Source of the DNA: Clostridia bacterium | GTDB lineage: Bacteria > Bacillota > Clostridia > Oscillospirales > CAG-272 | DNA length: 64,000 nucleotides | Assembly: GCA_017472695.1 (NCBI GenBank) | Contig: JAFUOQ010000016.1 | Location: 25,944-89,943, forward strand | Reading direction: 5' to 3' | Shown: positions 29,682 to 51,433 of the stretch, in pieces | How the letters are laid out: every line of letters begins with the position of its first letter | Numbering within the stretch: position 1 is the stretch's first letter | Program-made: the position numbers and the translations under genes | The notes under the pieces: generated by a model | What the model saw: the letters and a program-made list of their open reading frames with translations, nothing else | The model's database searches: none | What the model was told of the DNA's origin: nothing

Positions 29682-29986
29682 ATTCTACTCCTTTCCTTAT
29701 TTTAAAAAATCACTACTATTTTAGCACAAATTTTTTCTATATGCAATATATATTATGAATTTTAATAAAATTTAACAAAATATTGTATTTTTGGTGAATT
29801 CGTCAACAAAAATGAGCCGAATAGGGTTGTACCCTATAGGACAGTTTTCCAAAATACGGCATATCTCTTTTGAGATATGCCGTATTTCGCGTTTGTGTCC
29901 ACAAATGCAGTGCTTCGTCTGTATTAACTAAAGACTACAACAAAATTACGGTTATTTTGATATGCGAAAAGTCCGCACAAATCAAA

Positions 29987-30432
29987 GGCTCCCTTGTGTA
30001 AAGGGAGCTGTCAGCGAAGCTGACTGAGGGATTGTTCTACGAGGTGATCAATATATTCACAAACACCTCGAAAGTTTTTATGTATTTCCGTATTCGGTAT
30101 TCTGATAACCATCAATCCGTATTCTTCAAGAAAAGCGGTTCTTTCTTCATCATATTGCTTTCCTTTCTCGGTATAATGTCCTGAGCCGTCAAGCTCTATA
30201 ATAAGCTTTGCCTCTGCACAGTAAAAATCCGCAATATGCCTTCCGAGAACCTTTTGGCGTGAAAAACGAATGGGATAGGTGCGCAAAAAATCATACCAAA
30301 GGTGCTTTTCTTCTTTGGTCATATTCTTTCGTAGCATTTTAGCAGTGAGAACTATGTCTTTATTATGTTTTCTCTGCATTACAATCCCTCCGTCACGCTT
30401 TGCGTGCCACCTCCCTTTACACAAGGGAGGCT
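29987..30432 (-). mobile_element. Inverted-repeat-bounded cassette carrying a DUF559 endonuclease gene
   Basis: Arms 29987-30035 and 30381-30432 are inverted copies of the same two-hairpin sequence seen at 17854-17975. The DUF559 ORF fills the space between them exactly, with its stop codon inside the left arm. Confidence 0.7.
30011..30379 (-). CDS. DUF559 (Vsr/restriction-endonuclease-like fold) domain protein
   Basis: Typical DUF559 sequence LRKNMTKEEKHLWYDFLR...RFSRQKVLGRHIADFYCAEAKLIIELDGSGH. I start at the ATG at 30379 (MQRKHNKD) because the 15 codons upstream are the translated repeat arm. Confidence 0.85.
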   Translation of the reverse strand: MQRKHNKDIVLTAKMLRKNMTKEEKHLWYDFLRTYPIRFSRQKVLGRHIADFYCAEAKLIIELDGSGHYTEKGKQYDEERTAFLEEYGLMVIRIPNTEIHKNFRGVCEYIDHLVEQSLSQLR

Positions 30433-30509
30433 TTTGCTGATTAACACCTCAGTATTTCTCAATAAATGGAAATTTGACAATCTTCATATGATGTTTTCTG
30501 TTTTTAACC

Positions 30510-34787: not shown

Positions 34788-35172
34788 AGCACGATATAAA
34801 AAATCAGAAGCAAAATGATGTTGCAATCCACTAATATAGAAATCAACCTATACGAGATAATCGTATAGGTTGATTTTTTATATTTTTGCAAGAGCTTAAG
34901 CATTTTGGTGTCAAGTGTATGGCTGTTATAACTTTTCATTTCTGTGTCCGTGCGTCCGTTTCCATAATGCCAAATTTTCCTTTTAAATTAAAAAATAGCG
35001 GGGCAAGTGTCTGATATTGGCTTTGTAAAGTTCCTAAACAATATTTCATGTGATTTTTACGACATATGAAAAACCGTACGGTTTTATCCATACGGGTTTT
35101 ATTTTTAATTGTTTTTTTGGTGAATTGGTATCCAATTGGTATCCGGTATCCATTTTTGAAGAATCTAAAAGT

Positions 35173-35238
35173 CCTAAAAGACTTGCGGTGCAAGGCTTTT
35201 TGGTTTTAGTTATCGCTCAAAGGCTTCATTGTTGGGAG
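35173..35238. repeat. lysS 3'-end/terminator copy A (att-like core, most diverged)
   Basis: The reverse strand of ttagttatcgctcaaaggcttcattgttggga encodes PTMKPLSDN*. It sits beside a hairpin analogous to the lysS terminator. Confidence 0.8.
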
Positions 35239-35250
35239 CAGTGTGAATTG

Positions 35251-35339
35251 CGTGGCATAACGTGGCAAAGCTTTGCATATCTTGACATTTTGGCTTTCCA
35301 CGTTTTCCATAACTTCTCATAAATTGGCATACGGTTACA
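35251..35339. repeat. 89-nt element arm, copy 1 (100% identical to 39223-39311)
   Basis: Compared base by base. The arm contains GTGGCATAAC GTGGCAAAG and TTGGCATAC motifs. Confidence 0.9.
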
Positions 35340-35446
35340 TCATTATGACGCACACTTTGAAATACATGGCGTGTGGATATAAAATACTATTAAATCTACA
35401 TTGATAGATATGCTTCTTGCCTCTATGCACCAAAATTGTAGTTTTC

Positions 35447-36811
35447 CTATTTTTTTGCCACCTTCCAAGCTCCAACGAAATAGAATATAACCCCTATAAT
35501 TATAGGTACAAGCTCTGCAAGGGTTGCTCCAAACCAAAAGCCTAAATATCCTAAATCAAGCCAAACTCCAAAAATCAACGCAAAGCCAATTCTTGCAGCT
35601 ATTGCATCAAGTAATGCAGTTATTAGGTTTATTTGCTTGTTGCCACTGCCTTCAATCAGCGCACGAAACACAGGTCTTATTCCTGCGTTTATAAGTGAGA
35701 AAACAAGTATTGGCAGGTACGGGTAAACGAGCTCTAGAAACGATGATTCCCTTGTGAATATTCCAAACAGCTGAGTTGGAAATAGTAAAAATGCAGTTAT
35801 TAGTATAAGTGATACTGATATGGTAATACCGCCTACCCTTAACATAGTGCCATTTGCTCTCTTTATTTTACCTGCCGCAATATTCTGTCCTATTATCATA
35901 GCACCAGATGTTGCAATCGCACCAAGCATCAAGTCAACCGTTGTGGATATATTGGAGCGAATACCTGCAAAAGCAGACACACTAACGCCAAAATCGTTTG
36001 TTAACGAGCTTATAACCATGCCAGCAATTTGAATTGCAGAGTTATTTATTGCCATAGGAATGGCAAGCTTCAAAAATTTTGATAGGCTTATCTTGTCCCA
36101 TATAATAAAATCTCTTGGCTTTACAGAAAGCTCAAATGATTCTCGCTTTCTAATTATCATAGCTATAGAAAGAATTACGCTTACAAGCTGAGCTATAACC
36201 GTTGCCAATGCTGCACCGCCAACACCCATATCAAAGCCTATAACAAAAACAATGTCAAGCACAATATTAAGTCCACACGCTGTGGCAATGAAAATGAATG
36301 GATGCTTTGAGTCTCCCATTCCACGAACTATTGCACTTATTATATGATAAGCATAAATCGGGATGATTCCGAACAGACAAATTCTAGCATACTCAAATGC
36401 GCCCTCATATGCTTCGACAGGAGTGCTTAAAAGCTTTAGCATTGTGTTTGTCAATGGTATCATAACAGCCATAGACAAAAGGGCAATGACAAAAACAAAT
36501 CCACACACTGTGCTTACAAATTTTGAAATTTTCTTTTTTTCGCCAGAGCCTATCATAATAGCTATTATAACCTGTGCAGCCGAGGAAAAGCCTCCTATAA
36601 AGGCGTTTAAAAACATAGCAACCGAGCCACCTATTGTAACTGCAGATGTGCCAATTTCCCCAAGCTTATATCCAACTACTATTAGGTCCACAGAGTTGAG
36701 CAGAACCATCATAAGGTTGGAAAGTAAAACAGGGATTGCAAATTTTACAAGGTGTGCAGTTAAATTTCCCTGTGTAAAGTCCTTTATTTCAGAATGCTTT
36801 AACGCTGTCAT
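35447..36811 (-). CDS. MATE family efflux transporter
   Basis: 454 aa, 12-TM profile, N-terminal FAIPVLLSNLMMVLLNSVDLIVVG typical of MATE. Confidence 0.88.
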   Translation of the reverse strand: MTALKHSEIKDFTQGNLTAHLVKFAIPVLLSNLMMVLLNSVDLIVVGYKLGEIGTSAVTIGGSVAMFLNAFIGGFSSAAQVIIAIMIGSGEKKKISKFVSTVCGFVFVIALLSMAVMIPLTNTMLKLLSTPVEAYEGAFEYARICLFGIIPIYAYHIISAIVRGMGDSKHPFIFIATACGLNIVLDIVFVIGFDMGVGGAALATVIAQLVSVILSIAMIIRKRESFELSVKPRDFIIWDKISLSKFLKLAIPMAINNSAIQIAGMVISSLTNDFGVSVSAFAGIRSNISTTVDLMLGAIATSGAMIIGQNIAAGKIKRANGTMLRVGGITISVSLILITAFLLFPTQLFGIFTRESSFLELVYPYLPILVFSLINAGIRPVFRALIEGSGNKQINLITALLDAIAARIGFALIFGVWLDLGYLGFWFGATLAELVPIIIGVIFYFVGAWKVAKK

Positions 36812-37902
36812 TTTAGTAAATCATCAATTTTTAGAATTTCCATTAGCTCTCCACCACGCTTTGCCGATTCATTTGCGATAATGCCAGGTAGTGAAATTCT
36901 TATTCCCATATCAACATCAATCGGTGGTTCAGTATCCTCTATAATGCACTTAATAAAGTCACGTATCATTTTGGCATCTACTCCACCGTGGCCATAAACA
37001 TCGCCGTTATTCGAAAGCTTAACGGGAATTTCAAAGGATTTTTCAAAGGTATTAGGAACTTCATACATTTTAGCAAAAGATGTTGCTTCTTCAAGTGGCT
37101 TTGTTTTATCGGTTAAAACCATTCCCCTTGTTCCATAAAGCGCAAAGTTGTGGTCGTAGCCAACATACATACCAAATCCGATAAATATGCGAATTACTGC
37201 ACCCTTGGCTGTTTTAAATATAGCTATTCCATTTTCGTCCCCTTCGCTATATTGATTATATTTTGCAGAGGTTGGCGTCATACACGAAACGCTTACTGGA
37301 TAGTCGTCCATTATGTAAAGAAGTGGACCTAGATTGTGAGTAAGATACGTTATCGCAGGATTAAATCTGCGCCAATGATTTTCTTTAGTGTACGGCTTAA
37401 TCTCATCTGGATGTGTTGCGTGAAGATACTCACTCTCTGCATAAAGAATATCGCCGAATTTTCCGTCCTCACGCATCTTTTTCCATGCCTTGATAAACTC
37501 CCAATAAAAGCAGTTTTCACCAGCCATATATTTAAGCTCAGGATGTGATTTTACAGCATCTCGAAGGATTTTTACCTCTTCTATGGTTTCTATTACAGGA
37601 ATTTCACTTAAAACGTGCTTTCCTGCCTCAAGTGCCATTACTGTGTGCCTTGTGTGGAGTGGCTTATCAGTTGCGATAAACACAGCATCTATATCGCTTT
37701 TCAAAAGCTCCTCTATGCTATCAAAGCAAAGAAAATCCTTAACTCCATTTTTTTCGTAGTCCTCCTTGCACGCCTTAAGTGTTTCTGGGTCTGTGTCGGC
37801 TATTGCACGTATAACTACGTTTTTATCTCCAATTAATGTCCAAGCAACATATGCGCCTCTTTTAAGTCCTACAACGCCTAGCTTTATAACCTTATTTTCC
37901 AT
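36808..37902 (-). CDS. Gfo/Idh/MocA family oxidoreductase
   Basis: The N-terminal Rossmann segment IKLGVVGLKRG begins at the ATG at 37902 (SD AAAGGAAA); the ORF track extends to 37968. The stop overlaps the MATE start by 4 nt. Confidence 0.85.
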   Translation of the reverse strand: MENKVIKLGVVGLKRGAYVAWTLIGDKNVVIRAIADTDPETLKACKEDYEKNGVKDFLCFDSIEELLKSDIDAVFIATDKPLHTRHTVMALEAGKHVLSEIPVIETIEEVKILRDAVKSHPELKYMAGENCFYWEFIKAWKKMREDGKFGDILYAESEYLHATHPDEIKPYTKENHWRRFNPAITYLTHNLGPLLYIMDDYPVSVSCMTPTSAKYNQYSEGDENGIAIFKTAKGAVIRIFIGFGMYVGYDHNFALYGTRGMVLTDKTKPLEEATSFAKMYEVPNTFEKSFEIPVKLSNNGDVYGHGGVDAKMIRDFIKCIIEDTEPPIDVDMGIRISLPGIIANESAKRGGELMEILKIDDLLK

Positions 37903-38095
37903 AGTATTTCCTTTTCTCAAAAACTTTTTATAATAGTTTTTCATTTCCCTTTTTATTTTATCAAACAAATTTGTTTTAGTAAATGCATTTTTTCGTGTTT
38001 TATATGAAAAAAATCCACAAGAAATAGATTATTCACTTGACTTTTATTTCAAAACCAGCCATAATTGAATTATATCAAAGAAAGGCAGGATTTCT

Positions 38096-38917
38096 ATGAG
38101 CAAGAGTATATGCCAGTTTATATCAGCAAAAAATGAAGAATCAGCTATCAAGGCTGTAAGATTTGTTTACGAAACAGAATGTCTATCCTTAAGGCAACCA
38201 TTTGTTCACCCAATTTACGTTATTCACATTGTAACGCAAGGGACTGCCACCTTACGTATTGATGCTAATGAGTATTTTTTAAAAAGAGGTGATGTCTTTT
38301 TTGCCTTTCCTGCATATCCTCATTATATTGATGCAAATGAAGATTTTGAATATATCTACATCAGTTTTATGGGTAATGGTGCGACCTCGCTTCTTTCTAG
38401 ATGTAAGATAACTCCCAGTTCTCCCTATTATGATAATTTAGGTTTTCTGTGTACAATGTTTGAAAATGCAATAAGAAGGATAAATTCACGTAATGCAAAT
38501 ATGCTTACAGAGTCGGTCTTATATTATGCTCTTTCATACTTTGATAATGATGCGTCTAATATTGAAATAGAGAATCAAGTAAATACAGATGGTCTTTTTA
38601 AAGCAATAGTAAATTATGTCGATCGTCATTACTGGGAAAACGATATGTCCTTGAGCAGACTTGCAAATGTATTTTCATACACTGAAAAATATTTGTCCGC
38701 TCTTTTTAAAAAAAATATGCAAATCGGATTTGTTAGCTATCTCAATAATTTAAGAATACAGTACGCCAATGAGCTTATCGAAAAAAGGGAGCTTAATATA
38801 TCAGAAATAGCTAACGCCTGTGGATACAGTGACTATTCCTATTTTTCAAAGGTTTATAAAAAAAGCACTGGCAAATCCCCAACAGAAAGCATGGAGTGGA
38901 TTGCAAAAAGAAAATAG
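38096..38917 (+). CDS. AraC family transcriptional regulator
   Basis: 273 aa. N-terminal cupin-like sensor and C-terminal double HTH (ISEIANACGYSDYSYFSKVYKKSTGKSP). Divergent from the oxidoreductase-MATE operon. Confidence 0.9.
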   Translation: MSKSICQFISAKNEESAIKAVRFVYETECLSLRQPFVHPIYVIHIVTQGTATLRIDANEYFLKRGDVFFAFPAYPHYIDANEDFEYIYISFMGNGATSLLSRCKITPSSPYYDNLGFLCTMFENAIRRINSRNANMLTESVLYYALSYFDNDASNIEIENQVNTDGLFKAIVNYVDRHYWENDMSLSRLANVFSYTEKYLSALFKKNMQIGFVSYLNNLRIQYANELIEKRELNISEIANACGYSDYSYFSKVYKKSTGKSPTESMEWIAKRK

Positions 38918-39144
38918 TGATTGCATTCCTTTTGATTAGTCAATACAAGCTCTTAAACAAGTCTTGAATATGGGCTTTGTGTAGCTTCATACAAACTTTA
39001 AAAGAGGGAGTTTGGCACACAAAAAAGAACCACAGGATTTTTATGTCCTGTGGTCTTGTTTTTAATTGAATTTTTTCGTGTGTTTTTGCCTGCAAATTGG
39101 TACACTTTTGGTACACTAACGGCTTTTTGATTTTTTCAAAAGTG

Positions 39145-39210
39145 CCGAAAAGCCTTGTAGTATAAGGCTTTGCGGGATTAGTTATCTGCCAAAGGCTTCA
39201 TTGTTGGGAG
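39145..39210. repeat. lysS 3'-end/terminator copy B (att-like core)
   Basis: The reverse strand of ttagttatctgccaaaggcttcattgttggga encodes PTMKPLADN*. It differs from the true lysS end only at three synonymous positions and includes a copy of the terminator hairpin. Confidence 0.85.
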
Positions 39211-39222
39211 TGGTGGTAAATA

Positions 39223-39311
39223 CGTGGCATAACGTGGCAAAGCTTTGCATATCTTGACATTTTGGCTTTCCACGTTTTCCATAACTTCTCATAAATTGGC
39301 ATACGGTTACA
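39223..39311. repeat. 89-nt element arm, copy 2 (100% identical to 35251-35339)
   Basis: Compared base by base. Further TTGGCACAC / TTGGCATAC repeats follow (39316-39337). Confidence 0.9.
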
Positions 39312-39597
39312 GCACTTTGGCACACGATTTGGCATACGTGGCGTGTGGCTATTACACTAATGAAAAATAGTGAAAAAATAGTGAAATTTTTGTGGAAATT
39401 TTAATGTAATTGTGGTATAATAAAAACACATGATATCAATAACGCAAGCACTATTGCGGTGTTTTTATTGACGGCTAAAAGGTTTTTCTTCGCCTTTTGC
39501 TTGAAAAACGCATCTTACGATGCTACAAACACTTTTGTGTTTGCTTTTATGGTATAATACTATTAGTCAACATCTTAATTTGCAAAAAGGAGAAAAT

Positions 39598-40695
39598 ATG
39601 ATTAAAGTAATGTTAACAAATGATATTTTAAAGAAAATATCAGCCATTGATGAAAATCGTTTCCTTTTAGGAACAGTTGAATTACCTCCGATTACAAGAA
39701 ACAAGCTTCGCAAAAATTCAAAGAAAAAAAGCTCCTATGCGTCAAATAAAATCGAGGGAAATCCATTAACTGAAAAGCAAGCGAGTGATGTCCTTGAAAG
39801 TGATTCACACAAGCACTTTTTAAAGCCCGAGCAAGAAATAAGAAACTACTATTCTGCTCTTACTCTCCTTGAAGAAAAGATTAATAACAGGACTCCTTTT
39901 TCAAAAGAACTCATTTTAGAGGTTCAAGCGATAGTTGAAAAGGGCGCTTCAAAAGAAAAAATTGGTTTAAGAGGACAAATGCCTCCCGGGGTATTATTTG
40001 CAGTTTATGATACAGAAAGTGGTGCGCCTGAATATATACCGCCTGAATACTCAGATATTTCCCCTCTCCTTGACGAGCTTGTAGAATATGTAAACACAAC
40101 TGATGACCATCCACTTATTATTGCAGGGGTTGTTCATTATCAATTAGTTACAATTCACCCATTTGAAGACGGTAATGGTAGAACCGCAAGACTTATGTCT
40201 GGATATATATTAGATTTATATGGGTATGGATTTAACGGTATAGGCTCTTTGGAAGAATATTTTGCTTATGACTCCGACGAATATTATTCTTCGCTTCAAA
40301 TGGGCTTGCCTGTGTTATACTATTCTGGAAGAGATAATCCACCTCATCCGGAAATATGGATTAACTATTTTCTCCGTATGGTTGAATTATATTCCAAAAA
40401 AGTTTATGAGCTATCTAAGGAATCTTCCAAGGATGATATAGCAGGAAGCTTATCCTACCTAAATTCCAAGGAAAAGGAATTTTTGAAATTTCTTATTTCA
40501 AATCGAATTTATGAGATTGTTCCCATTGAAGTAAGCAAAAAATTAGGTGTTACGAACAAAACCGTTATCAACAGATGCGCAAAGCTTGCTTCTAACGGGT
40601 TTTTATTACCGAATATTGTAAAAGAACGAATTCGCTCTTACACTCTTTCTGATTTTGTAAAAAACAATGCTAAACAAATAATTGCTTTAATATAA
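39598..40695 (+). CDS. Fic family protein (class II, N-terminal inhibitory motif) with C-terminal winged-helix domain
   Basis: Fic core HPFEDGNGRTARL. N-terminal SNKIEGN matches the (S/T)xxxE(G/N) inhibitory helix motif. ATG at 39598 follows AAAGGAGAA (ORF track starts at 39520). Confidence 0.88.
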   Translation: MIKVMLTNDILKKISAIDENRFLLGTVELPPITRNKLRKNSKKKSSYASNKIEGNPLTEKQASDVLESDSHKHFLKPEQEIRNYYSALTLLEEKINNRTPFSKELILEVQAIVEKGASKEKIGLRGQMPPGVLFAVYDTESGAPEYIPPEYSDISPLLDELVEYVNTTDDHPLIIAGVVHYQLVTIHPFEDGNGRTARLMSGYILDLYGYGFNGIGSLEEYFAYDSDEYYSSLQMGLPVLYYSGRDNPPHPEIWINYFLRMVELYSKKVYELSKESSKDDIAGSLSYLNSKEKEFLKFLISNRIYEIVPIEVSKKLGVTNKTVINRCAKLASNGFLLPNIVKERIRSYTLSDFVKNNAKQIIALI

Positions 40696-40882
40696 AACAA
40701 AACCACCCTTATACCAATCACGGTATAAAGGTGGATTTGTTTTTATAGTTTTGATATTAAAACTTTATTTGATAAAGTTGTACCAAAGCTAAATGAAAAA
40801 TCAAGCTTTCTGCGCCAAATTTTAGTAATTAAAGAGCTGGTCTTTTTGTCATTAGTTTGTATGAATTAGTTTTAACAAAGCC

Positions 40883-41161
40883 TTAGTCGTTTTCTAATTT
40901 GTCGCAAGCAACACATGTGCCAAGCTCGGCATCATTGAGTACATCTTTGATTTGTTCGTGAAAAAGCTTATAATCATTAAGGTCCGGATACTTTTTCTTT
41001 AACACATCTGTTGCTATAGCATATACTTTTTCGCCTTCCATTTTAATGTTTATAGGCCTTTCGTGAGGACACACCTCTATTGCTCCTATTTCTAACAAAA
41101 TATTGTGAGCTGTATCCCTGTAGAGATCATATTTTTCTAATTCGTGTTTTGCTAAACTCAC
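40883..41161 (-). CDS. Small hypothetical protein (92 aa, four Cys)
   Basis: ORF downstream of the LRR gene on the same strand. CPHE...CVAC could bind metal. No family recognised. Confidence 0.45.
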   Translation of the reverse strand: MSLAKHELEKYDLYRDTAHNILLEIGAIEVCPHERPINIKMEGEKVYAIATDVLKKKYPDLNDYKLFHEQIKDVLNDAELGTCVACDKLEND

Positions 41162-41214
41162 TTTTATTTATCCTTTCTTTTTACTGCGCTTTCTTAATAA
41201 TTTTTACCAACAAA

Positions 41215-44200
41215 TCATTTACAGTACCAGTAATAAGAGCAATATGAGATTTTTAAATAAGTGGCATTCGTACTTGAATACAGAACACTAACATTTGTTC
41301 CACTTGTTGCACCTTCTGTTGTTGTTACATACCAACCGGAAATATCGTCAAAACTCACCGTTTTTAACGAAGTACAACCTGCGAACGCATATTTCCCTAT
41401 TGAGGTTACCTTATTAGGAATCACCACTTTTGTAAGCGAAGTACAACCTGAGAACGCACTGCTTCCTATTGAGGTTAGGTTACTTCCAAATGTTACATTT
41501 GTAAGCGAGGTGCAATCTGAGAACGCACTGCTTCCTATTGAAGTCAGGTTAGTTCCAAATATTACACTTGTAAGCGAAGTACAACTTGAGAACGCACTGC
41601 CTCCTATTGAAATAAGGTTGGTTCCAAACGTTACACTTGTAAGCAAGGTACAGTCTCTAAACGCAGAGTTTCCTATCGAGGTTACGCTATCGGGAATCAC
41701 AATACTTTTAAGCGAAGTGCAACTTCTAAATGCATATTGTCCTATTGAGGTTACATTATTAGGAATCACTACTCTTATAAGCGAAGTGCAATAAGAGAAC
41801 ATAAAATTTCCTATCGATGCTATGCTATCAGGCAATTTGATGCGTGTAAGCAAGTCGCAACCACTGAACGCTTCGTTTCCTATAGATGTTACGCTATTTG
41901 GTATTGTTAGATTTGTAAGCGAGGTGCAACCTGAGAACGCAGAATCACCTATTGTAGTTACACTATCCCCAATTGTTACGCTTGTAAGTGAGGCGCAGCT
42001 ACGGAAAGCATAGTCTCCAATAGATGTTACGCTATTTGGAATTGTTACACTTGTTATATCGTCTCGATTATAGAAAGCATACTGGTTTATAGAATAACTT
42101 TCACCATTATAACCTTCTGGCAAGATGAGCTCTTTTTCATCGCCTATATAATCTATAAGATATATTTCCTTGTCACTTACTACTTTAAATACATAGCCGT
42201 CTTCAGTCGTTTCTATCATGCTATTTTCATTCAATATGTGTACTTCCTTTGCATAATAGCCCAAATATCCGTTGCTCTTTGTTCCAAGAGTTATATTTAA
42301 TTTAGAAAGATTACATACCTCTACAAGCTTGTAACACTTGTAGAAAGCACAGTCTCCAATGGATGTTACGCCATTTGGAATTGTTACACTTGTTATATCG
42401 TTACGATTATAGAAAGCATACTGGTTTATAGAATAATCTTTACCATTATAGCTTTCTGGTAATTTAATCTTTGTATTAGTTCCTACATATCCCACAAGGT
42501 AATATTTATTTTCCCAAGTCATAAAAATATAATCATAAACTGTTTCAAGTATACTTGGTTCAACTTCATCAAGCGAGTCGTGTACTACCTTTGCATAATA
42601 TCCTATGTATCCATAGTTGTTTGAACCTTTGATTATATATAAGTACGAATTATTATATACCTCTACAAGCTTGTAACAGTTATTGAAAGCATAGTCTCCA
42701 ATGCTTTTTACGCCATTTCCAATGATTACACTTATCAAGCTGTCGCAATTATTGAATGCATTTTCTCCAATTGAAGATACACCGTTGCCAATTGTTATGC
42801 TTGTAAGCTTGTCGCAATCATAGAACGCACTATCTCCTATTGAGGTCACACTGTCTGGGATTATTATATTTATAAGTGAGTCGCAATTACAAAATGCAGA
42901 ATTATCTATTGTAGTTACACTATCCCCAATTGTTACGCTTGCAAGCGAGGTGCAACCATAGAAAGCATAATTATCTATAGAGGTTACGCCATTCGGAATT
43001 ATTACTTTAGTTATATCACTTCGTTCAAAGAAGGCATACTGGTTTATAGAATAATCTTTACCATTATAGCCTTCTGGCAATGTAAGTTCTTTTTCATCGC
43101 CTATGTAATCTATAAGGTATATTTCCTGATTACTTACTACTGCAAATACATAGCCATCTTCGGTTGTTTGAATTACACTGTTTTTAGACAATCTATGTTC
43201 TACCTTTACATAATAGTTTAAACCTCCGTCACTACTCGAACCGACGTCTATATCAACATCATAAGCGTTATTATATACTTCTACAAGCCTGTAGCAACCA
43301 CTGAACGCGTTGTCCTTTATCCAAGTTATACTAGGTGGTAATACTATGCTTTTCAGCGAAGTGCAATCTGAGAACGCATATTCTCCAATCAAGGTTACAT
43401 TCAATCCAATTGTCATATTTTCAAGTGATGTACAATATTGGAACGCACGGTCTCCTATTGAAGTTACACTATCTCCGATTGTTAGACTTGTCATTCTATT
43501 GCAATTATAGAATGCTTTACTTCCAATTGATTTTACACGATTTCCAATTGTTGCACTTTCAAGCAAAATACAGTTGTTGAATGCGCAGTCTCCAATTGAG
43601 GTTATATTATCCCCAATCGTTACACTTTCAAGCGATGCGCAACCAGAGAACGCATATCCTCCAATTGAGGTTACACTATCTGGAATCACAAATGATTTAT
43701 CCTGTTTTCCAACAGCATATTGTACAAGTGTTTTTCCATCCTTGGAATATAGATTTCCATCTATTGATTTATATACGGTATTGTTTTCGTCAACACTTAT
43801 GCTTGTAAGCGCGATGCAATCAAGGAATGCACCTTCTTCTATCGAGGTAACAGCTATTCCTTCGTAGGTGCTTGGAATTTCAATTCTAGTATTCTCGCAA
43901 AATCCAACACTGACAAGAGTATATTTGCCAGCATCATTTATTGCAAATACAAGCCCTTCTACCGGCATAATCTTACCGCAAACAGTACACATATAGTCTT
44001 CATATGCATGATTATTTGTTACCGGTACTTCAACTTGTGCTATAAGAATTTCACCACAAGAAGAACATTTTTTACCTTCAGTTAAACCTGTTTTGACACA
44101 GGTAGGCTCAACAATAGAAAGGGTTTCTTCCGTATGACCGTTAGCATCTATTACTGTTTGCTTTACTATAATTTCTCCGCAATCGGAGCACTTTTTTCCC

Positions 44201-44754
44201 TCGGTAAGTCCTGTTTCGGTACAGGTCGGCGCTTTGCCTTCAACTGTTTCTTCCGTATGACCGTTAGCATCTATTACTGTTTGCTTTACTATAATTTCTC
44301 CACAATCGGAGCACTTTTTTCCCTCGGTAAGACCTGTTTCTGTACAAGTTGGCTCTACTGCGGGTATGATTTCTTCAGTATGTCCTGTTGCAACTATCGG
44401 CTCTGATACGGCGTCACCACAGGAGCAAGCTTTTGTTTTTTCTCCCTGTTCGGTACAAGTTGGCTCTTTCGTTGTTATAAATTCACCATAGCTATGTTCA
44501 TGCGGAACATCAGGCGTTATATCGTCCGTATCTGTGCTTGAATCAGTTCCATTGTCTGTGTTGGTATCGGTTTCAGTATCAGAGCTTGAATTATCTGTTC
44601 CCGAATCAACATTTGAACCCGTGTTTGTTTCACCCGTGTTTGCACTATCACTTGATGGTGTTTCTGTATTGTCACAGGAAGATAATACAAACAGCATCAC
44701 AAGTGATAAAACAAGACAGATTAAAAGTGTGATTTTTCCTTTTGTGTTAGTCAT
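41215..44754 (-). CDS. BspA-type leucine-rich-repeat surface lipoprotein with Ser/Thr/Asp-rich linker and four Cys-rich ~41-aa modules
   Basis: 1179 aa. Signal peptide with lipobox LSSC, SD AAGGAGGG, low-complexity TDTNTDNGTD region, repeats GHTEE..EPTCTETGLTEGKKCSDCGEIIVKQTVIDAN, then dozens of LRR_5-like units (VTSIGDxAFxxCxSLxSVTIP). Confidence 0.85.
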   Translation of the reverse strand: MTNTKGKITLLICLVLSLVMLFVLSSCDNTETPSSDSANTGETNTGSNVDSGTDNSSSDTETDTNTDNGTDSSTDTDDITPDVPHEHSYGEFITTKEPTCTEQGEKTKACSCGDAVSEPIVATGHTEEIIPAVEPTCTETGLTEGKKCSDCGEIIVKQTVIDANGHTEETVEGKAPTCTETGLTEGKKCSDCGEIIVKQTVIDANGHTEETLSIVEPTCVKTGLTEGKKCSSCGEILIAQVEVPVTNNHAYEDYMCTVCGKIMPVEGLVFAINDAGKYTLVSVGFCENTRIEIPSTYEGIAVTSIEEGAFLDCIALTSISVDENNTVYKSIDGNLYSKDGKTLVQYAVGKQDKSFVIPDSVTSIGGYAFSGCASLESVTIGDNITSIGDCAFNNCILLESATIGNRVKSIGSKAFYNCNRMTSLTIGDSVTSIGDRAFQYCTSLENMTIGLNVTLIGEYAFSDCTSLKSIVLPPSITWIKDNAFSGCYRLVEVYNNAYDVDIDVGSSSDGGLNYYVKVEHRLSKNSVIQTTEDGYVFAVVSNQEIYLIDYIGDEKELTLPEGYNGKDYSINQYAFFERSDITKVIIPNGVTSIDNYAFYGCTSLASVTIGDSVTTIDNSAFCNCDSLINIIIPDSVTSIGDSAFYDCDKLTSITIGNGVSSIGENAFNNCDSLISVIIGNGVKSIGDYAFNNCYKLVEVYNNSYLYIIKGSNNYGYIGYYAKVVHDSLDEVEPSILETVYDYIFMTWENKYYLVGYVGTNTKIKLPESYNGKDYSINQYAFYNRNDITSVTIPNGVTSIGDCAFYKCYKLVEVCNLSKLNITLGTKSNGYLGYYAKEVHILNENSMIETTEDGYVFKVVSDKEIYLIDYIGDEKELILPEGYNGESYSINQYAFYNRDDITSVTIPNSVTSIGDYAFRSCASLTSVTIGDSVTTIGDSAFSGCTSLTNLTIPNSVTSIGNEAFSGCDLLTRIKLPDSIASIGNFMFSYCTSLIRVVIPNNVTSIGQYAFRSCTSLKSIVIPDSVTSIGNSAFRDCTLLTSVTFGTNLISIGGSAFSSCTSLTSVIFGTNLTSIGSSAFSDCTSLTNVTFGSNLTSIGSSAFSGCTSLTKVVIPNKVTSIGKYAFAGCTSLKTVSFDDISGWYVTTTEGATSGTNVSVLYSSTNATYLKISYCSYYWYCK

Positions 44755-45481
44755 TTTAGACCCTCCTTAAATTGTGTTTTAGCAATATAAAGGTGCTCTA
44801 ACAGAAATAAAAAGAGCACCAACCGTAGTTAGTGCTCCGAAAAACGCAAACTCCGATTGTTGCTACACAATTAAATAACTATGGTATTAGCCATAACCTA
44901 TTTAAAGGAATTCGCGTTTTTTCCAAATTCATAAAATAGGTATGACCAAAAAAGGGTATAGTTATCCCATAATAGCAAAAATACCATAAATCTTATTATT
45001 TAATTGCGTAGCACATTTATTATAACACATTTTATAGGAAAAACAACAAAAAATCGAAAATTTTTTATAAATACTCATTGGAAAGGGTTTGGGACTTGTT
45101 TTCACTTTAGCTTACAAATAACAAATTACAACAAGAAAGCTTGAAAAACAGACTCCTATGGGCTCCATATAAGTGTTTAATTGCGTAATATAAAAGAAAT
45201 ATACCCATGTGACTTTGCACACGGGTATATTGTATATAGTGAAAACTGAACATTATTAGAATGTATGTAGTCAAGCTTTCCTTAATTATTTGACAATCGC
45301 AGATGGAGAGGGAATGACATTTTTGACGGAGCTCATATGAGCCCAATATCGCACTTTCAGTACTTTTAATATAAATCGTTGCATTGTTGAAGAAAGCCAG
45401 AAAACGGGCTCCGTGAAATTTCTAAACAATGTTATATAGGCGTTGTTTGGCGTACAAAAAGCAAATGCTATTTCAAAAATA

Positions 45482-45519
45482 ATATGCTCCCCAAAAGTTA
45501 GACACTTTGGGGAGCATAT
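45482..45519 (-). terminator. Intrinsic terminator of the 377-aa/1232-aa operon
   Basis: Perfect 11-bp inverted repeat atatgctcccc / ggggagcatat, 18 nt after the stop at 45537, followed on the minus strand by ATTATTTTTG. Confidence 0.75.
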
Positions 45520-45536
45520 CAAATTGGACTTGTTTT

Positions 45537-48500
45537 TCATCCTATAATGGATCTCAATTTGTCTCTTTCTCCTTCACGATAGTAATCAGAGGAGATGTAT
45601 TCTAATGCTTTTGCAGTAATAGGATGCGTACTTTCATAATATTTCTTGTATGCATCGTATTTTTTGCTTAAATTGAACTCGACGCTACCATTTCCAACAG
45701 TTCTTACTCCTCTTGAGTTTAAGAACGCTGAATTGAATGTATATGCTACATCATACTTTGAGTCAAAATCATCGCAAGCGAACTCTTCCAAAATATCAGC
45801 AATCTCAATCACTGGCCATATGGTCTCCCACGGTTGCTTTAATACTCTAGCTAAAGTATTAATAACCGCAATTTTTAATATTCTTTTTTCGTCTGTGCCT
45901 TCTTTTGCCACACCAATCATCCTATAAGCCCAAGATTTCAGCATTTCTTTATTTTGAGAAACTGTTTCTATAGGAACAAAGCAGAGTTCTCCATAGGAAC
46001 CAATTACCTCGTACAACATTTTTTGTCCTAATGAGTGATCTTTAATTTCTTCCCTTTGTAGATATAGATTTTTCAAAAGTTCACCCAACGCCTCTGGATT
46101 GTTCCAAAAATATTGCTTTATTCCTATTGGAAAATCTTTTAAATCATATAGCAAAAATGGCAACAAATCAAATTCACACTTGCACAATTCATCAGTATAA
46201 TATTCCTTATCCATACTATCAATAAAAGCACTTAACGCATATTTTTCATTAACAAGCTTTGCAGCGAATCTCTCTTCGTTTGCATTTATAGATAATGATT
46301 TTAACAATGCTATTCCTTCACTATACGTATACACTTTATTTTGATATGCATAATATCCCAACAACGCAACAGGATAAAAAGATACCAATTTTTCTATGAC
46401 CTTGTCCTTAAAAGAACAAACACCCCAAATCATACTTCGCTCAAACCAATATTTTCTTTCTAATTCTGTGTTTTCAAATTTATTTATAAGGTACTCATTT
46501 AAGGGAAGACACATACAAATAAAATCAGAATTGTTTTCGTTTAATTGGTTGCCAATAAGCTCATCTATTTCTTCATGCGTAAACCACGACAAATAGCAAG
46601 ATAAGGCTGTTTTGTCTCGCTTGTTAATAATCAAACTAGCATCTCTCATGTGGTTTTTAGAATTTGCGTAAATTATCTCCCAAGAACTCCATGTTTTTCC
46701 ACAAGCAATTGATATTACCTTTTCTATAACATTTTCCCCATAAAAATCGATCAACTCTTTTATGAATTTCTCTCTAATATTTTTTCTTTCAATTTGCTCG
46801 TATTCTATCCAAGTGTGATCGTTACTATCATATTCTCTGGGATGATCAAAAGGGAAAGAATCATTTTCAAAAACATATTTATATCTTACAAACAAGTCTT
46901 TTGCTTGGGTCATATCAAACAATTCTATTAAATCTGACAACAATTCTTTTAATCTTTCTCTGTTTTTATACTTTTTAACATCGTAAATTGCGTCAAGTAT
47001 TTGATAATTCAATTGTGCTTTAATTTCATCATCCACATTTTTAACTTTGTTTTTAATCTCCGCAAGCCCTTCTTGAATTATGGAAGATTTCATCGTATAC
47101 ATATTATTGAAAATTTCTTTCAACATCTGTATCAACTCATTAGAACTACTGTTTTCTAGCAACCATCTAAGAGCTTCACTTTGTAATTTGTAATATTCTT
47201 CGTATGTAAAATTGATAGTTTCTGGCTTTTCAATTTTATACGAATGAATAACCGGAACTACTGCATTTAATTTTCCTCCACCTGCAAGCTTCTGAATAAT
47301 AGGTCTTGATTTTTCTACTGATTCCTTTTTTATTCGGCTAAATAACAATTCTGTTTTTTCGGATAGTGAAACAGGAATAGATGTCACCATAATGGGAGAA
47401 AACTTTTCTATTACAGCATCCAAAATCTTTTGAGAACCATTTAAATAATAATACAAGTCCAATAAAACGTGAAATGCTTCCTTGCTATGCTCCTTTATTA
47501 ATAAGCATCTTTCAACAGACCATAACACATAGTCTAAAAAGGCATCCTCAAAGAATAGACCTTCTTGCTTTGTCTCAAAAAATCTTTTTACAATCTCTTC
47601 CTTATTTTCTATAGAATCTCTTATAAATTTTAAAAATGAATATGGAGATAGTTCTGCTAACTTCGGAAGATATGGAGCAACAGTAAGAAGCAACTCGTAT
47701 TTTTCTTTTGCTTTATTTAGAACATCGTTTACAAACAAATCAAAATGTTGCTGCGCCATATAGCTCTTAGTTGAAATAATCACAAAACCATCAAGTATAT
47801 TATTTACTAAACTTTCACTCCATTTATAAGAACCATCATTAACATACCAAACAGATGGTTTTTTCTCGTATTTAGGATTAATAAAAGACAATATTTCTTT
47901 CATTTTTTCCTCAAGTTTTTGAAGCTTCAAAGAATAAATATCTATTTGAATGTAATCAAAGCATTCTTTGCGTGCACACAATTTGAATGTAGTCTGATAT
48001 TTAAATAAAGGAGATTCCTTGGTTTCTGACCAATAATTTAACAATTCCAAATAATAATCATAATTTTCTCCCACTAATGTTTTTAGCACTTCCACATCAC
48101 ATTGTCGATTCATCCTTATTTCATCCATCAGCATTAGAGGAATCATTTCGTTTTTATTTTTTAGCCTTGCCCAGTTTGGAACTTTGCACAACGGATTATT
48201 AGCAAGTAATCTTCTTAGTGCCATAAAATTACGATCCGTAGAAATTGCTATTTTATAGGCAGTAGAGCTATCATAGTTCATATTTTGCTCTAATGCTTTT
48301 TCAAAATCACAAATTTCCACACGCTCAAGTTGAATGTTAGCTTTTACATAATTATCAAATATGATATAAATGTTATTTTTATTTTTTCGTATTTTTTCAT
48401 CAAAACAATTAAAGTTAATGATAATAACCTTGTCTTCACAAAAAGTTTTAACTACATCTAATGCGGCTTGATTATTTACAACTATACATTTTTCTTTTAA

Positions 48501-49235
48501 ACTATCATCACCTTTCAAACATATACTTGCAATAGTAAAATAAAATGCATAATCCGTTCCAAAATATCTTGATGATACTGAATATATAGAACCATTTTCT
48601 AATTTGTTTAATTCTTCAATTAATACACCCGAATTGGCTTGATTACCCGCTGTTACTATTTCTTCTGATAAGATTGGAGTGGTAGAGTTTTTGAAAAATT
48701 CCCAGTCAGCAGTTGCTAAAGCAATTCCATAACTATCGACTTTTTCACCGAACTCTTTGAGTAGCCAAATTTCCACATCTATATGTTTTTGTAACCACTT
48801 TTCCAAATCGTTCGCATCAATTACACAAATTTCTTTGAATATTCCTTCTGCATTGGCTTTTTGTATGAAGTTTTGCACTTGTGTTGAGTCGACTATTTTA
48901 GGTGTAACTGCTACATAAGAATATTCACTTTTTTCGAATTCTGTAAGCTCTTCTTTCCGTTTATTATAATCACTCTGGATTTTTTGTAAAGCTTGTGTTG
49001 TCGTTCCTAATTCCCAGAATGAATTGTTCAATGGAACAAATTCATGCTCAACCCTATTATCAAGCACTTTGCCATCCCATCCTGTAGTATATATTGCAAC
49101 TCCTGAAGGAAAATGTGTTTTACCTGTCTTGTTTATTGACAATCGTATCAATTTTCTAATTAATTCAGGAAATATTTCCTGTCCTCTTCTAGAATCATTT
49201 TTAAACAACTCTGATATTTTAACGCTAGATATCAT
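45537..49235 (-). CDS. Orphan giant protein (~1232 aa), no recognised catalytic domain
   Basis: Uninterrupted ORF in AT-rich DNA. The ATG at 49235 lies 7 nt after AAGGAGA, which sits inside the upstream gene (the ORF track's ATG at 49241 is only 1 nt from the SD). Overlaps the upstream stop by 11 nt. Composition suggests a largely helical protein. Confidence 0.8.
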   Translation of the reverse strand: MISSVKISELFKNDSRRGQEIFPELIRKLIRLSINKTGKTHFPSGVAIYTTGWDGKVLDNRVEHEFVPLNNSFWELGTTTQALQKIQSDYNKRKEELTEFEKSEYSYVAVTPKIVDSTQVQNFIQKANAEGIFKEICVIDANDLEKWLQKHIDVEIWLLKEFGEKVDSYGIALATADWEFFKNSTTPILSEEIVTAGNQANSGVLIEELNKLENGSIYSVSSRYFGTDYAFYFTIASICLKGDDSLKEKCIVVNNQAALDVVKTFCEDKVIIINFNCFDEKIRKNKNNIYIIFDNYVKANIQLERVEICDFEKALEQNMNYDSSTAYKIAISTDRNFMALRRLLANNPLCKVPNWARLKNKNEMIPLMLMDEIRMNRQCDVEVLKTLVGENYDYYLELLNYWSETKESPLFKYQTTFKLCARKECFDYIQIDIYSLKLQKLEEKMKEILSFINPKYEKKPSVWYVNDGSYKWSESLVNNILDGFVIISTKSYMAQQHFDLFVNDVLNKAKEKYELLLTVAPYLPKLAELSPYSFLKFIRDSIENKEEIVKRFFETKQEGLFFEDAFLDYVLWSVERCLLIKEHSKEAFHVLLDLYYYLNGSQKILDAVIEKFSPIMVTSIPVSLSEKTELLFSRIKKESVEKSRPIIQKLAGGGKLNAVVPVIHSYKIEKPETINFTYEEYYKLQSEALRWLLENSSSNELIQMLKEIFNNMYTMKSSIIQEGLAEIKNKVKNVDDEIKAQLNYQILDAIYDVKKYKNRERLKELLSDLIELFDMTQAKDLFVRYKYVFENDSFPFDHPREYDSNDHTWIEYEQIERKNIREKFIKELIDFYGENVIEKVISIACGKTWSSWEIIYANSKNHMRDASLIINKRDKTALSCYLSWFTHEEIDELIGNQLNENNSDFICMCLPLNEYLINKFENTELERKYWFERSMIWGVCSFKDKVIEKLVSFYPVALLGYYAYQNKVYTYSEGIALLKSLSINANEERFAAKLVNEKYALSAFIDSMDKEYYTDELCKCEFDLLPFLLYDLKDFPIGIKQYFWNNPEALGELLKNLYLQREEIKDHSLGQKMLYEVIGSYGELCFVPIETVSQNKEMLKSWAYRMIGVAKEGTDEKRILKIAVINTLARVLKQPWETIWPVIEIADILEEFACDDFDSKYDVAYTFNSAFLNSRGVRTVGNGSVEFNLSKKYDAYKKYYESTHPITAKALEYISSDYYREGERDKLRSIIG

Positions 49236-50358
49236 TATCATTCTCCTTTAATCCATAATTCTCTCTATTCCTAAATAAAGTAAAATTATTATCATATATT
49301 GGATCATTTTTTATAAAGTCTTGTACGGATGGTATGTTAAGACAGTTCATTAATTTTATAAGGTTTTCACCATCCGGTATAGTTTCGCCTTTTTCCCATT
49401 TTTGGTATGTTCGTAATTGAACACCGACTGCGTCAGCTATTTGTTGCTGTTTCATGCCTCTATAATTTCTATAAAATTTCAAAGCAGTTCTGTCCAATTC
49501 CATAATATATGAACCTGTATATATGAGATACCAAACATCTTCATTATCGTCATCATCATTATATATATTTGGCAAATATATTTTAGTTTTAGGATTTAGG
49601 CCTATATGCAGTTCTTTTTCATTGCTTTCCCTACCCATTGAGTAACAGTTTGTTGCTTTAACATACTCTGCATTTTCTATCCATACTCCGATCCATTTTA
49701 AAGCTGGTATGTTGTTACTATCACAAGGAAATTGTCCACCTACAATTATTTCATTGTCTATTCTTAAAAAATTTTCATTGAATCCTACTAATCCAGGCAT
49801 ATATATAATTGGCTCCTTGCCCGTTCTTTCAAGAATGTCGTTATATGCATATGTAATCGACTCTGGAAATTTATTATCAATATTCATACTTTGACACATT
49901 TCCAAATATTCTATCCACATAAACAAAACCCTAGAATTCCCAGTCGACGGACCATGTTGGTTTACAATATAACTAAAAATATCCGGTACTTTCAATTTGT
50001 ATTCATATAGCAGTTTTTCCAGTGCTATATACATATGCTCGTAATCATGCTCGCGATGCTCATTCCAACGCATATCATATATTATAGAACTCAATGAACC
50101 AAACTCTTTTTTATAATAATCGCACACATAAAAATAAAATGGTATTCTTTTCACAAAAACATCAACAGGAACAGGCGAAAACCCATATTCATATTCAATA
50201 CATTTAACATTTCTATTAGTGTTTTTTCTTATAACTAAATCAAATATTTCATTTCCTACAACATTGTGAATGTTTAAATATGATAATAATTTTTCTGTAT
50301 CGTAATATTCCTCTGTTACATATTGTTTAATAAAGTTTACTTGATCATGTGTTAACAC
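49225..50358 (-). CDS. Orphan protein with C-terminal XRE-type helix-turn-helix (377 aa)
   Basis: GTG start 8 nt after AGGGGGA. The C-terminal MKQQQIADAVGVQLRTYQKWEKGETIPDGENLIKLMNCLNI is a canonical HTH_3/XRE domain. The ~290-aa N-terminal part is unrecognised. Confidence 0.8.
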   Translation of the reverse strand: MLTHDQVNFIKQYVTEEYYDTEKLLSYLNIHNVVGNEIFDLVIRKNTNRNVKCIEYEYGFSPVPVDVFVKRIPFYFYVCDYYKKEFGSLSSIIYDMRWNEHREHDYEHMYIALEKLLYEYKLKVPDIFSYIVNQHGPSTGNSRVLFMWIEYLEMCQSMNIDNKFPESITYAYNDILERTGKEPIIYMPGLVGFNENFLRIDNEIIVGGQFPCDSNNIPALKWIGVWIENAEYVKATNCYSMGRESNEKELHIGLNPKTKIYLPNIYNDDDDNEDVWYLIYTGSYIMELDRTALKFYRNYRGMKQQQIADAVGVQLRTYQKWEKGETIPDGENLIKLMNCLNIPSVQDFIKNDPIYDNNFTLFRNRENYGLKENDNDI

Positions 50359-50388
50359 AATATAATCCCCCTAATTTTTTCTAATTAC

Positions 50389-50417
50389 ATTATACACGAA
50401 TAAAAATGCGTTTTCAA
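50389..50417 (-). promoter_or_regulatory. Strong sigma-A promoter of the orphan two-gene operon
   Basis: On the minus strand: TTGAAA (50417-50412), 17-nt spacer ending in TG, TATAAT (50394-50389). About 25-nt leader to the SD. Confidence 0.7.
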
Positions 50418-50789
50418 GCGAAACTTTTGACGTGAAATATGCATTTTAATTCTTCAAAGCTTAACTTTTTAAAAATAAAAATTTTAATTTTAATGAAAGA
50501 CGCGAAACAAAAGACATTAACAAATAAAAAATGTGGCTTAATTATATTTTCTACCCAAGTTTAAGCTTTAGCATGCTTTTTAATAATCACAAAGGTGGAT
50601 AACCATAACACAGCGCAATAGTCCTATAGCAAAAAGACTTGTTTTAACTTGGAGAGGGATTTAAATGCCAAATGTTAAGCTGTTAAACAAGTGCTGAATA
50701 TGGGCTTTGTGGAGCTCCTAAAGAGCGTTTGAGAGAGTTGGGTGGCATACAAAAAAGCCCACACGGTTGTTTCCGTATAGGCTGATTTA

Positions 50790-51140
50790 TCATCTAAAAT
50801 TCCCAACAACGTTTAAAAGTCCAAAGAGAAATATAGATATAATTAAACAAACACCAACTTTTGTTATCGTATATAGAATACTTCCTTTATATGGTTTTTC
50901 AGTTTTAGGATCATACATATTTCCTACTATACTTCTCGTTACCTTATGAATCGGGTCTTTTAATATCTCATTTCCAATTTTGTTAGTAATTTTTCCAAAA
51001 ACGCCACATTCATTTAATTGATCTAAAGGATCGGGTGTTATCTTATCTCTAACAAATCCATTTCCTTTTTTAAACACCTTATAAAATTTTTTATTATATG
51101 TTCTTCTTTTGTTTGAACTTCTATTTTTATTTTTTCTCAA
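50790..51140 (-). CDS. Small basic protein with C-terminal transmembrane helix (116 aa)
   Basis: TTG start 8 nt after AAAGGA. N-terminus MRKNKNRSSNKRRTYNKKFYK, C-terminal VGVCLIISIFLFGLLNVV. Followed by a terminator hairpin (50757-50782). Confidence 0.5.
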   Translation of the reverse strand: MRKNKNRSSNKRRTYNKKFYKVFKKGNGFVRDKITPDPLDQLNECGVFGKITNKIGNEILKDPIHKVTRSIVGNMYDPKTEKPYKGSILYTITKVGVCLIISIFLFGLLNVVGNFR

Positions 51141-51368
51141 TAGTTTTGTCCTTTCTATTATGAATTTTATTTTATCATAATTATACCATTATTTTGTGCT
51201 ATTGTAAAGTCTTACATGTCTCAAAAAGGCGACAGTATAAATAAGCCTCTACGATTTTGGTCGTAAAGGCTTGATTTTTATTAAATTTGTGTGCCGATTT
51301 GCGATGCTTTTACCTGCAATTTGGCATACGTTTGGCATATTTGACATACGGTTTGGAATGCCAAAAGT

Positions 51369-51433
51369 CCGAAAAGCCTTGTAGTACAAGGCTTTGTGGG
51401 ATTAGTTATCTGCCAAGGGTTTCATCGTTGGGA
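51369..51433. repeat. lysS 3'-end/terminator copy C (functional end of lysS; att-like core)
   Basis: Same ~65-nt sequence as copies A and B. It includes the real lysS stop (51402-51404) and the terminator hairpin aaagccttgta(gta)caaggcttt. Confidence 0.9.

Follow-up and report, generated by a model that had tools for sequence, protein, structure and literature searches.

The lysyl-tRNA synthetase gene lysS of a Clostridia bacterium (Oscillospirales, CAG-272; assembly GCA_017472695.1, contig JAFUOQ010000016.1, positions 25,944 to 89,943) is followed by two gene islands, each closed by a further copy of the lysS 3' end. The stretch analysed, 64,000 nucleotides (nt) long, is called the window, and its features are collected in Table 1. 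The last 10 codons of lysS, the stop codon and the terminator hairpin occur two extra times, in direct orientation. According to a repeat finder, one direct-repeat family comprises 35173-35237 (A), 39145-39209 (B) and 51369-51433 (C, the true gene end), with 80% identity of A and 92% identity of C to copy B. Searching the window with the 18-mer CCAACAATGAAGCCTTTG and up to three mismatches gave four matches against 0.10 expected by chance, namely the three copies on the minus strand and one plus-strand site with three mismatches at 15710. A complete lysS end with stop codon and hairpin is present at all three copies (PTMKPL(A/S)DN-stop), that of copy B differing from the real one by three synonymous changes. 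An earlier note on this DNA, made from the sequence alone, had described these three direct copies, with PTMKPLADN-stop in B and PTMKPLSDN-stop in A, and the repeat finder, the 18-mer search and the reading of the sequence agree with it. No fourth copy was found left of A, and the 780-nt gap 44755-45536 holds no hidden attachment-site (att) remnant that would split island 2.

The similarity extends beyond the copies. On the left of each, direct 9-mers, a minus-strand terminator-like hairpin and a conserved block follow one another in a shared order. The block, noted before at 38953 and 50683, covers 38947-38986 and 50677-50716 with 90% identity; as a coding remnant it is open for 13-17 codons only and has no homologue. 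To the right, A and B share a 217-nt repeat (84% identity). Within it are the 89 nt reported earlier as fully identical (35251-35339 = 39223-39311), for which direct comparison gives 100%. This perfect segment sits in arms that are otherwise 70-90% alike and is bounded on its core side by a 12-nt patch, which had been said to differ completely and is in fact only about half different. Gene conversion is the obvious candidate for the 89-nt identity, and a protein-binding function is also possible. The segment has no promoter above chance, an Rfam search of 33.5-53.5 kb recovered no known RNA families, and a 36-codon open reading frame (ORF) across the segment was dismissed for want of a ribosome-binding site. 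Short Logan contigs break inside the 89-nt repeat. Wherever independent assemblies overlap the window they match it at 99.98-100% identity, and both 89-nt repeats are crossed by a single k=141 contig (L086), so that the arrangement is real and no assembly artefact.

The 9-mers vary from copy to copy. Read on the lysS strand, they are GGATACCAA beside A, GTGTACCAA beside B, and GTATGCCAA, ATATGCCAA and GTATGTCAA beside C, with the consensus GKRTRCCAA; the earlier notation was TTGGTATCC (two copies and a partial one), TTGGTACAC (two copies) and TTGGCATAC-type (three to four copies). The hairpin and the two to four copy-specific 9-mers lie left of each core as described there, and further copies exist beyond those listed. 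These are GTATGCCAA and GTGTGCCAA copies to the right of A and B (35324, 39296, 39317, 39329) and one more 9-mer after the second hairpin (39012 and 50742). All listed 9-mers belong to the minus strand, and they occur to either side of the copies. The pattern [GA][GT][AG]T[AG][CT]CAA has 21 minus-strand matches in the window, 12 of them at most 250 nt from the three copies; these 12 sites in 1.7 kb compare with 0.3 expected (Poisson P ~7e-16, a post hoc value, as the degenerate motif was defined after seeing the data).

With their P and P' arms, the copies are direct repeats that hold the 3' end of the target gene, and both islands are att-flanked. Pfam-type annotation agrees with the gene content proposed before, which was a MATE protein, an oxidoreductase and an AraC regulator in island 1, and a Fic protein, a leucine-rich repeat (LRR) protein and an orphan operon in island 2. 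Part of island 2 (46-51 kb) has a GC content of ~30%, against 38-40% nearby. The absence of an integrase from both islands, likewise claimed earlier, was borne out by every approach used. Pfam, NCBIfam and PADLOC found no recombinase in 35239-51368, ORFs below ~60 amino acids (aa) being scanned only in part. A motif scan for tyrosine and serine recombinases gave none in the islands; its single match in the window (20054-20371) lies inside a longer opposite-strand ORF and is probably spurious. Comparison of the window by tblastn with the recombinases of three relatives (L072, L051 and L062) returned nothing, not even an integrase remnant, and a PDB sequence search of the two unannotated island 2 proteins revealed no recombinase. 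Among the Pfam matches of the island ORFs there is no relaxase, coupling protein or VirB4. Neither the integration/excision module nor the conjugation/mobilisation module of an integrative and conjugative element (ICE) or an integrative and mobilisable element (IME) is thus found in the islands. The cognate integrase (PF02920 + PF00589) and Xis are absent from the islands and from the whole window, and present only in relatives.

In the orphan operon, the gene for a 377-aa protein overlaps the start of that for a 1234-aa protein by 17 nt. The model of the 377-aa protein has a predicted local distance difference test (pLDDT) score of 89, and a fold search matches XRE helix-turn-helix (HTH) domains only. 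The protein belongs to a family of ~150 in Clostridia, Bacilli and Paenibacillus, with a conserved 290-aa N-terminal domain without PDB fold match followed by the C-terminal XRE HTH. Residues 1-620 of the 1234-aa protein (AlphaFold pLDDT 89) match the STAND NTPases Avs4, SAMD9, Apaf-1 and Dark with low TM-scores, and no canonical Walker A motif is visible by eye. Its homologues are rare (29 in a collection of 5.8 billion proteins) and, where their context is visible, have restriction-modification, AAA_15/21, PLD-helicase and NUDIX genes as neighbours. It is a candidate uncharacterised defence protein, and the operon is most likely defence cargo and no recombination module. Many units with a 69-nt period make up the BspA-type LRR gene (41215-44754, minus strand), which also has larger duplications within it (300 nt at 78%, 111 nt at 95%), as is typical of fast-evolving surface proteins.

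Table 1. Features at and downstream of lysS, in window positions (P and P', element arms next to the core)
Feature	Position	Strand	Remarks
Remnant of third element	34838..35172	-	GGATACCAA x2 and a partial copy (35125-35151), hairpin 35074-35095, weak block near 35004-35032
GH5 cellulase gene remnant	34880-34995		Last 39 codons, frameshifted; terminator 34838-34878
Copy A, attL-type junction	35173..35238	-	Pseudo-lysS end 35206-35238 (PTMKPLSDN-stop) and terminator
P' arm of island 1	35239..35380	-	Variable patch, 89-nt segment 35251-35339, one intact GTATGCCAA (35324-35332), degenerate sites beyond
Island 1 cargo	35381..38946
MATE efflux protein	35447-36811	-
GFO/IDH/MocA oxidoreductase	36808-37968	-
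AraC regulator	38096-38917	+
P arm of island 1	38947..39144	-	GTGTACCAA x2 (39097-39116), hairpin 39028-39055, GTGTGCCAA 39012-39020, conserved block 38947-38986
Copy B	39145..39210	-	Pseudo-lysS end 39178-39210 (PTMKPLADN-stop) and terminator
P' arm of island 2 (lysS-distal)	39211..39352	-	12-nt variable patch, 89-nt segment 39223-39311; arm-type sites 39296-39304, 39317-39325, 39329-39337
Island 2 cargo	39353..50676
SoFic-like Fic protein	39520-40695	+	PADLOC SoFic model match at 1e-45
92-aa ORF	40883-41161	-
BspA-type LRR lipoprotein	41215-44754	-	1179 aa
STAND-like orphan	45537-49241	-	1234 aa, no Pfam match
Protein with C-terminal XRE HTH	49225-50358	-	377 aa
P arm of island 2 (lysS-proximal)	50677..51368	-	9-mers 51321-51349 (GTATGCCAA, ATATGCCAA, GTATGTCAA), hairpin 51243-51272, hairpin 50756-50783, GTATGCCAC 50742-50750, conserved block 50677-50716; same arm type at the lysS loci L003 and L096
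Small ORF in island 2 P arm	50790-51140		116 aa, no family
Copy C, attR-type junction	51369..51433	-	True lysS end (core 51402-51433, PTMKPLADN-stop) and terminator hairpin 51369-51401
lysS, target gene	51402..52928	-	Lysyl-tRNA synthetase, 508 aa; Pfam tRNA-synt_2 and tRNA_anti-codon; identical protein on public contigs

A protein-guided scan with one genome per species yielded 80 lysS loci of relatives (designated by L numbers), nearly all from metagenome bins labelled Clostridia, Eubacteriales or Oscillospiraceae, many of them from ruminant or other gut samples. About 27 of the 68 loci with enough sequence show lysS, a hairpin and two to four direct 8-10-mers 50-90 nt past the stop codon. 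The motifs of the relatives are of 15 types or more, among them TTACACCA, TACGCCAA, TTACGACA, TGACAGCA, ACAACTTTTA, CTTACACA and TTACCACCA. The remaining loci of the 68 have a plain terminator followed by unrelated genes, and distant relatives of this kind, with no repeats, show the appearance of an unoccupied site. Contigs of related bins end within 2.5 kb of lysS at 33 loci downstream versus 9 upstream, an excess that fits variable or repeated DNA on the downstream side. L003 and L096 carry a GTATGCCAA-type arm resembling that of copy C, and L002 (94% LysS identity) has TTTACACCA repeats, then small genes (one DUF6809) and the contig end. Defence cargo at the lysS site is present in further close relatives. 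L006 has genes for LRR and TIR proteins and for a resolvase there. In L005, Schlafen/AlbA_2 and DEAD-helicase/MZB genes fill the space from lysS to a far-end arm, which has GTATGCCAA-type repeats and no core copy; both L005 and L009 are without part of an arm.

Integrase genes were found at lysS in three relatives. In L072 (Candidatus Gemmiger faecigallinarum), a 9.5-kb element lies between lysS and a second, exact 15-nt copy of ATGAAGCCGCTGGAC. Its order is lysS, TTACACCA repeats, a PglZ-like protein, GmrSD and a primase-helicase, a Tn916-type Xis (PF09035) and a Tn916-type Int (PF02920 + PF00589); at the distal end, three TACACCA repeats start ~5 nt past the int stop codon and are followed by a spacer of ~117 nt and the 15-nt lysS copy. 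L025 holds a truncated Int homologous to that of L072 (43% identity), a STAND NTPase, three TACGCCA repeats, a spacer of ~118 nt and, at its distal end, a PTMKPID-stop copy followed by a terminator. Its motif TACGCCAA is one base off the window's TATGCCAA. As in the window, the sequence of parts in L072 and L025 is a lysS end, a hairpin, two to four direct 8-10-mers, cargo, again direct 8-10-mers and a second lysS end. L051 has an integrase of a different type directly behind lysS. Based on these three integrases, the lysS 3' end is a tyrosine-integrase attachment site in this clade, which bears out the earlier reading of the lysS duplication as the footprint of such an enzyme.

The copies in L072, L025, L009 and the window begin to resemble each other at one and the same point of lysS, CCNACNATGAARCC (codons PTMKP). 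The true crossover core is probably the ~14-33 nt around PTMKP, and the 65-nt repeat is most easily understood as a short core joined to the first part of P arms that are homologous to each other, the terminators resembling each other because the P arms are related rather than because the core is 65 nt long. As copy B has arm repeats on both sides of its core, which is the layout of a phage-type attP, it is, together with both flanks, a putative attP-like hybrid site between the islands.

In Tn916, the N-terminal domain of Int binds arm-type repeats, while the catalytic domain binds the core. The window's 9-mers would be bound in the same way by an N-terminal arm-binding domain, and the homologous architecture of the integrase-bearing relatives backs this arm-site reading, first proposed from the resemblance of the 9-mers to such sites: in L072 and L025, both arms have direct 8-mers, whose strand and distances are those of the 9-mers in the window. 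Direct repeats could otherwise be replication iterons or operator sites, the lysS-end copies marking the borders in some other way. L072 encodes a primase-helicase, replication modules of this type often use iterons, and the motif varies between elements as iterons do. However, the repeats flank the core, on one strand and at fixed distances (50-90 nt past the stop codon, 85-120 nt before the distal core), those of L072 start ~5 nt past the stop codon of an integrase with the Tn916 arm-binding domain PF02920, and the window islands keep their repeats although they have no replication gene. Iterons or operators are therefore considered very improbable.

Att-flanked islands of this kind have been defined as cis-mobilisable elements (CIMEs), and a three-step accretion model has been put forward for them (PMC5704250, PMC7563491). 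Taken together, the observations make it probable that the locus arose by serial integration and tandem accretion at a lysS attB of elements from a Tn916-type Int/Xis family, of which integrase-less, CIME-type islands are now left. The attB would be the last lysS codons, and the family would be one with a Tn916-type tyrosine integrase and an excisionase. Following the three steps, an element would integrate, decay to an att-flanked CIME and be joined by a further element entering the att site beside the target gene. The incoming attP would bring a core matching CCNACNATGAARCC, a P arm that replaces the last lysS codons and supplies the terminator and two to four direct 9-mers, and a P' arm with the same kind of 9-mers. 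Each integration would place the new element next to lysS and push the earlier lysS end outward. On the lysS strand, this would give the order lysS, C, P arm (GTATGCCAA type), island 2, P' arm, B, P arm (GTGTACCAA), island 1, P' arm and A, and beyond A the P arm of a third element (GGATACCAA) and a GH5 remnant. Later deletion of the integration/excision genes and of any transfer genes would have left the att-flanked cargo. The arms matching the L072/L025 layout and the deletion scars in relatives would fit such a derivation from an ICE or IME. The element that came last is probably island 2, since it is nearest to lysS, partly of 30% GC and has arms with matching sites. We infer this order of events, and also that the islands could still move only via an integrase from another element.

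The copies might instead have been spread by homologous recombination or unequal crossing-over, with related lysS-downstream modules on incoming DNA as homology arms for swapping in the islands and without any integrase. The modules are 70-100% identical over 65-217 nt, which is enough for RecA-mediated exchange, and the 89-nt identity resembles a conversion tract. Mosaic pieces are also met at different positions in L005 and L096. In L005 (21113-21283) and L096 (1460-1700), the Fic promoter is fused straight to the last 25 Fic codons and the terminator (window 39328-39422 and 40620-40826); the same deletion scar in two hosts, at different positions of the lysS array, points to shuffling of fragments between arrays. 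Against this stand the start of similarity at those lysS nucleotides where L072 and L025 have short exact repeats, the rebuilding of a complete lysS end with stop codon at every copy, and the phased direct 9-mers on both sides, which are attP-like. Homologous recombination would explain later reshuffling but not this layout, and as the origin of the copies it is quite improbable.

The integration reading extends to the module left of copy A, for which the earlier note had left a choice between a third, decayed element and the ancestral lysS downstream region. In L004 (92% LysS identity), a GGATACCAA module lies directly behind lysS, with 84% identity over 103 nt to the left-of-A module, which in the window is 16 kb from lysS; as this module adjoins lysS, L004 shows the state without islands 1 and 2. 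L009 has a single intact gene for a GH5 cellulase (PF00150), with lysS on one side and an exact copy of 21 nt of the lysS end on the other. The position of the L004 module, the GH5 remnant of the window and the intact gene of L009 together favour the first option, in which the module is the arm of an older, almost erased element, over ancestral chromosome. The comparison of lysS downstream regions suggested earlier gave the L004 state and the plain-terminator loci but no empty or single-island variant of the same species.

Several results weigh against serial integration of mobile elements. Look-ups of exact protein matches to LysS, AraC and the deacetylase of the left flank led only to contigs that agree with the window at 99.98-100% identity, none of them an empty or single-island variant. 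An integrase with GKRTRCCAA-type arms is absent from the window and from every fetched locus, and two metagenome and three viral-contig scans gave nothing usable. In these, 24 nt of the 89-nt segment had no match in metagenome or viral contigs, the arm pattern CCGTATGYCAAATATGCCAAA hit one unrelated high-GC soil contig and no viral one, and an integrase profile had no confirmed match among viral contigs. BLAST of the copy B att region found only a 40-nt stretch of the Fic promoter in phages and nothing in plasmids, and homologues of the gene next to the L003 arm, from a GTATGCCAA-type element, lie only on 4-6 kb contigs without integrase. As the tblastn search revealed no integrase pseudogene in the islands, descent from an integrase-bearing element is argued from architecture alone. 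The two arms of island 1 differ in their 9-mer variants (GTGTACCAA near B, GTATGCCAA and degenerate sites near A). The third element is without a distal lysS copy, and the perfect 89-nt identity is unexpected from independent integrations and calls for an extra event, for example gene conversion.

A variant with the same origin, in which the islands are fixed, immobile relics with decayed att sites and no resident integrase that recognises them, and dependence on an integrase in trans is history, has in our view about an even chance. It would account for the identity of every contig carrying these genes to the window, for the lack of a cognate integrase in the motif scan and tblastn of the window, for the single intact GTATGCCAA in the P' arm of island 1 opposite another variant in its P arm, and for the third element having shrunk to a pseudogene fragment. 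The relatives decay too, as the deleted-Fic scar common to L005 and L096 and the partly missing arms of L005 and L009 indicate. On the other hand, the cores of island 2 are intact and its two arms carry GTATGCCAA-type sites that match, and 89 nt that are perfect between otherwise diverged arms fit constraint or recent recombination.

Whether mobile or fixed, islands formed by accretion at lysS are of a known kind: CIMEs in accretion are by definition att-flanked islands without an integrase that lie one behind another at a housekeeping gene 3' end. In Streptococcus thermophilus, the fda 3' end harbours ICESt1/ICESt3-related elements, and S. salivarius has CIMEs at rpsI, rpmG, fda and rplL (PMC5704250, PMC7563491). 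Like the islands of the window, streptococcal CIMEs are att-flanked cargo islands of 1.2-13 kb without integrase, excisionase or transfer genes, are stacked behind a housekeeping gene 3' end with the newest element next to the gene, and include tiny gene-less remnants ('microCIMEs'). Here, in contrast, the host is an uncultured ruminant-gut lineage of Clostridia/Oscillospiraceae, the target is lysS, and the array, known from its sequence only, comprises two CIMEs and a remnant with no functional ICE or IME. Streptococcal ICEs, too, use the lysS 3' end as a target, with repeats of 13-17 bp (Ambroset et al. 2016, PMC4701971). These share the target gene and gene end with the window but are conjugative, with an ICESt3-type conjugation module, whereas the relatives' elements are small, with primase-helicase, Xis, Int and defence cargo, and the window islands have none of these modules. 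With the Tn916 system, the Int proteins of L072 and L025 share PF02920, L072 has a PF09035 Xis, and direct repeats are present in both arms. Tn916, however, integrates with low specificity, while the relatives' elements are lysS-specific with an arm motif (TAYRCCAA-like) unlike the Tn916 repeats, and the window has no such integrase. The tRNA-Lys(CTT) gene of Streptococcus agalactiae harbours CIME, ICE and IME arrays, as cited in PMC7563491 and PMC5704250. In what these papers relate of it, integrase-less decayed elements outnumber intact ones, with tandem arrays and chimeric internal att sites as here; that hotspot differs in having a tRNA gene as target and unrelated integrases.

The novelty lies in the host lineage, in the defence-type cargo, in an array made of decayed elements only, and in how large and how diverse in its arm motifs the lysS-targeting family is in gut Clostridia. 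The locus shows how variable gene content accumulates behind one housekeeping gene in an uncultured gut lineage, part of it concerned with defence (SoFic-like and STAND-like orphan proteins in the window; TIR, GmrSD, PglZ, Schlafen and DEAD-helicase proteins in relatives). It also provides a signature for finding such elements in fragmented metagenome bins, where contigs often break at these sites, namely the PTMKP core, the hairpin and phased 8-10-mers. As integration at a gene 3' end, decay and accretion are textbook mechanisms for ICEs, IMEs and CIMEs, the value is descriptive, not conceptual. A more far-reaching idea, which we regard as rather unlikely, is that the islands are not dead relics but cargo cassettes open to exchange. 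They would belong to a large family, so far undescribed, of Tn916-type Int/Xis elements specific for lysS in gut Clostridia, whose arm sites would have diverged in specificity into at least 15 motif types. Integrase-less cassettes with intact arms, for example island 2 with its SoFic-like and Avs-like STAND genes, would be moved by the next integrase-bearing arrival at lysS, the perfectly conserved 89-nt P' segment being functional in the hand-over.

In ~17 related genomes, LysS has a C-terminal tRNA_bind domain (PF01588). In L072 (21069-21500) and L051 (18202-18642), an element at the PTMKP site inside the fused gene severs this domain, and the remnant coding for it lies past the distal core copy. 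Since the domain is cut off in these two relatives, an element arriving at PTMKP does not in every case leave the host gene unaffected. Elsewhere in the window, repeats of ~55 nt (88-92% identity, in both orientations) at 29986-30036 and 30379-30436 flank a DUF559 ORF (30011-30424) and recur at 17846-17976; they may be a small dispersed repeat.

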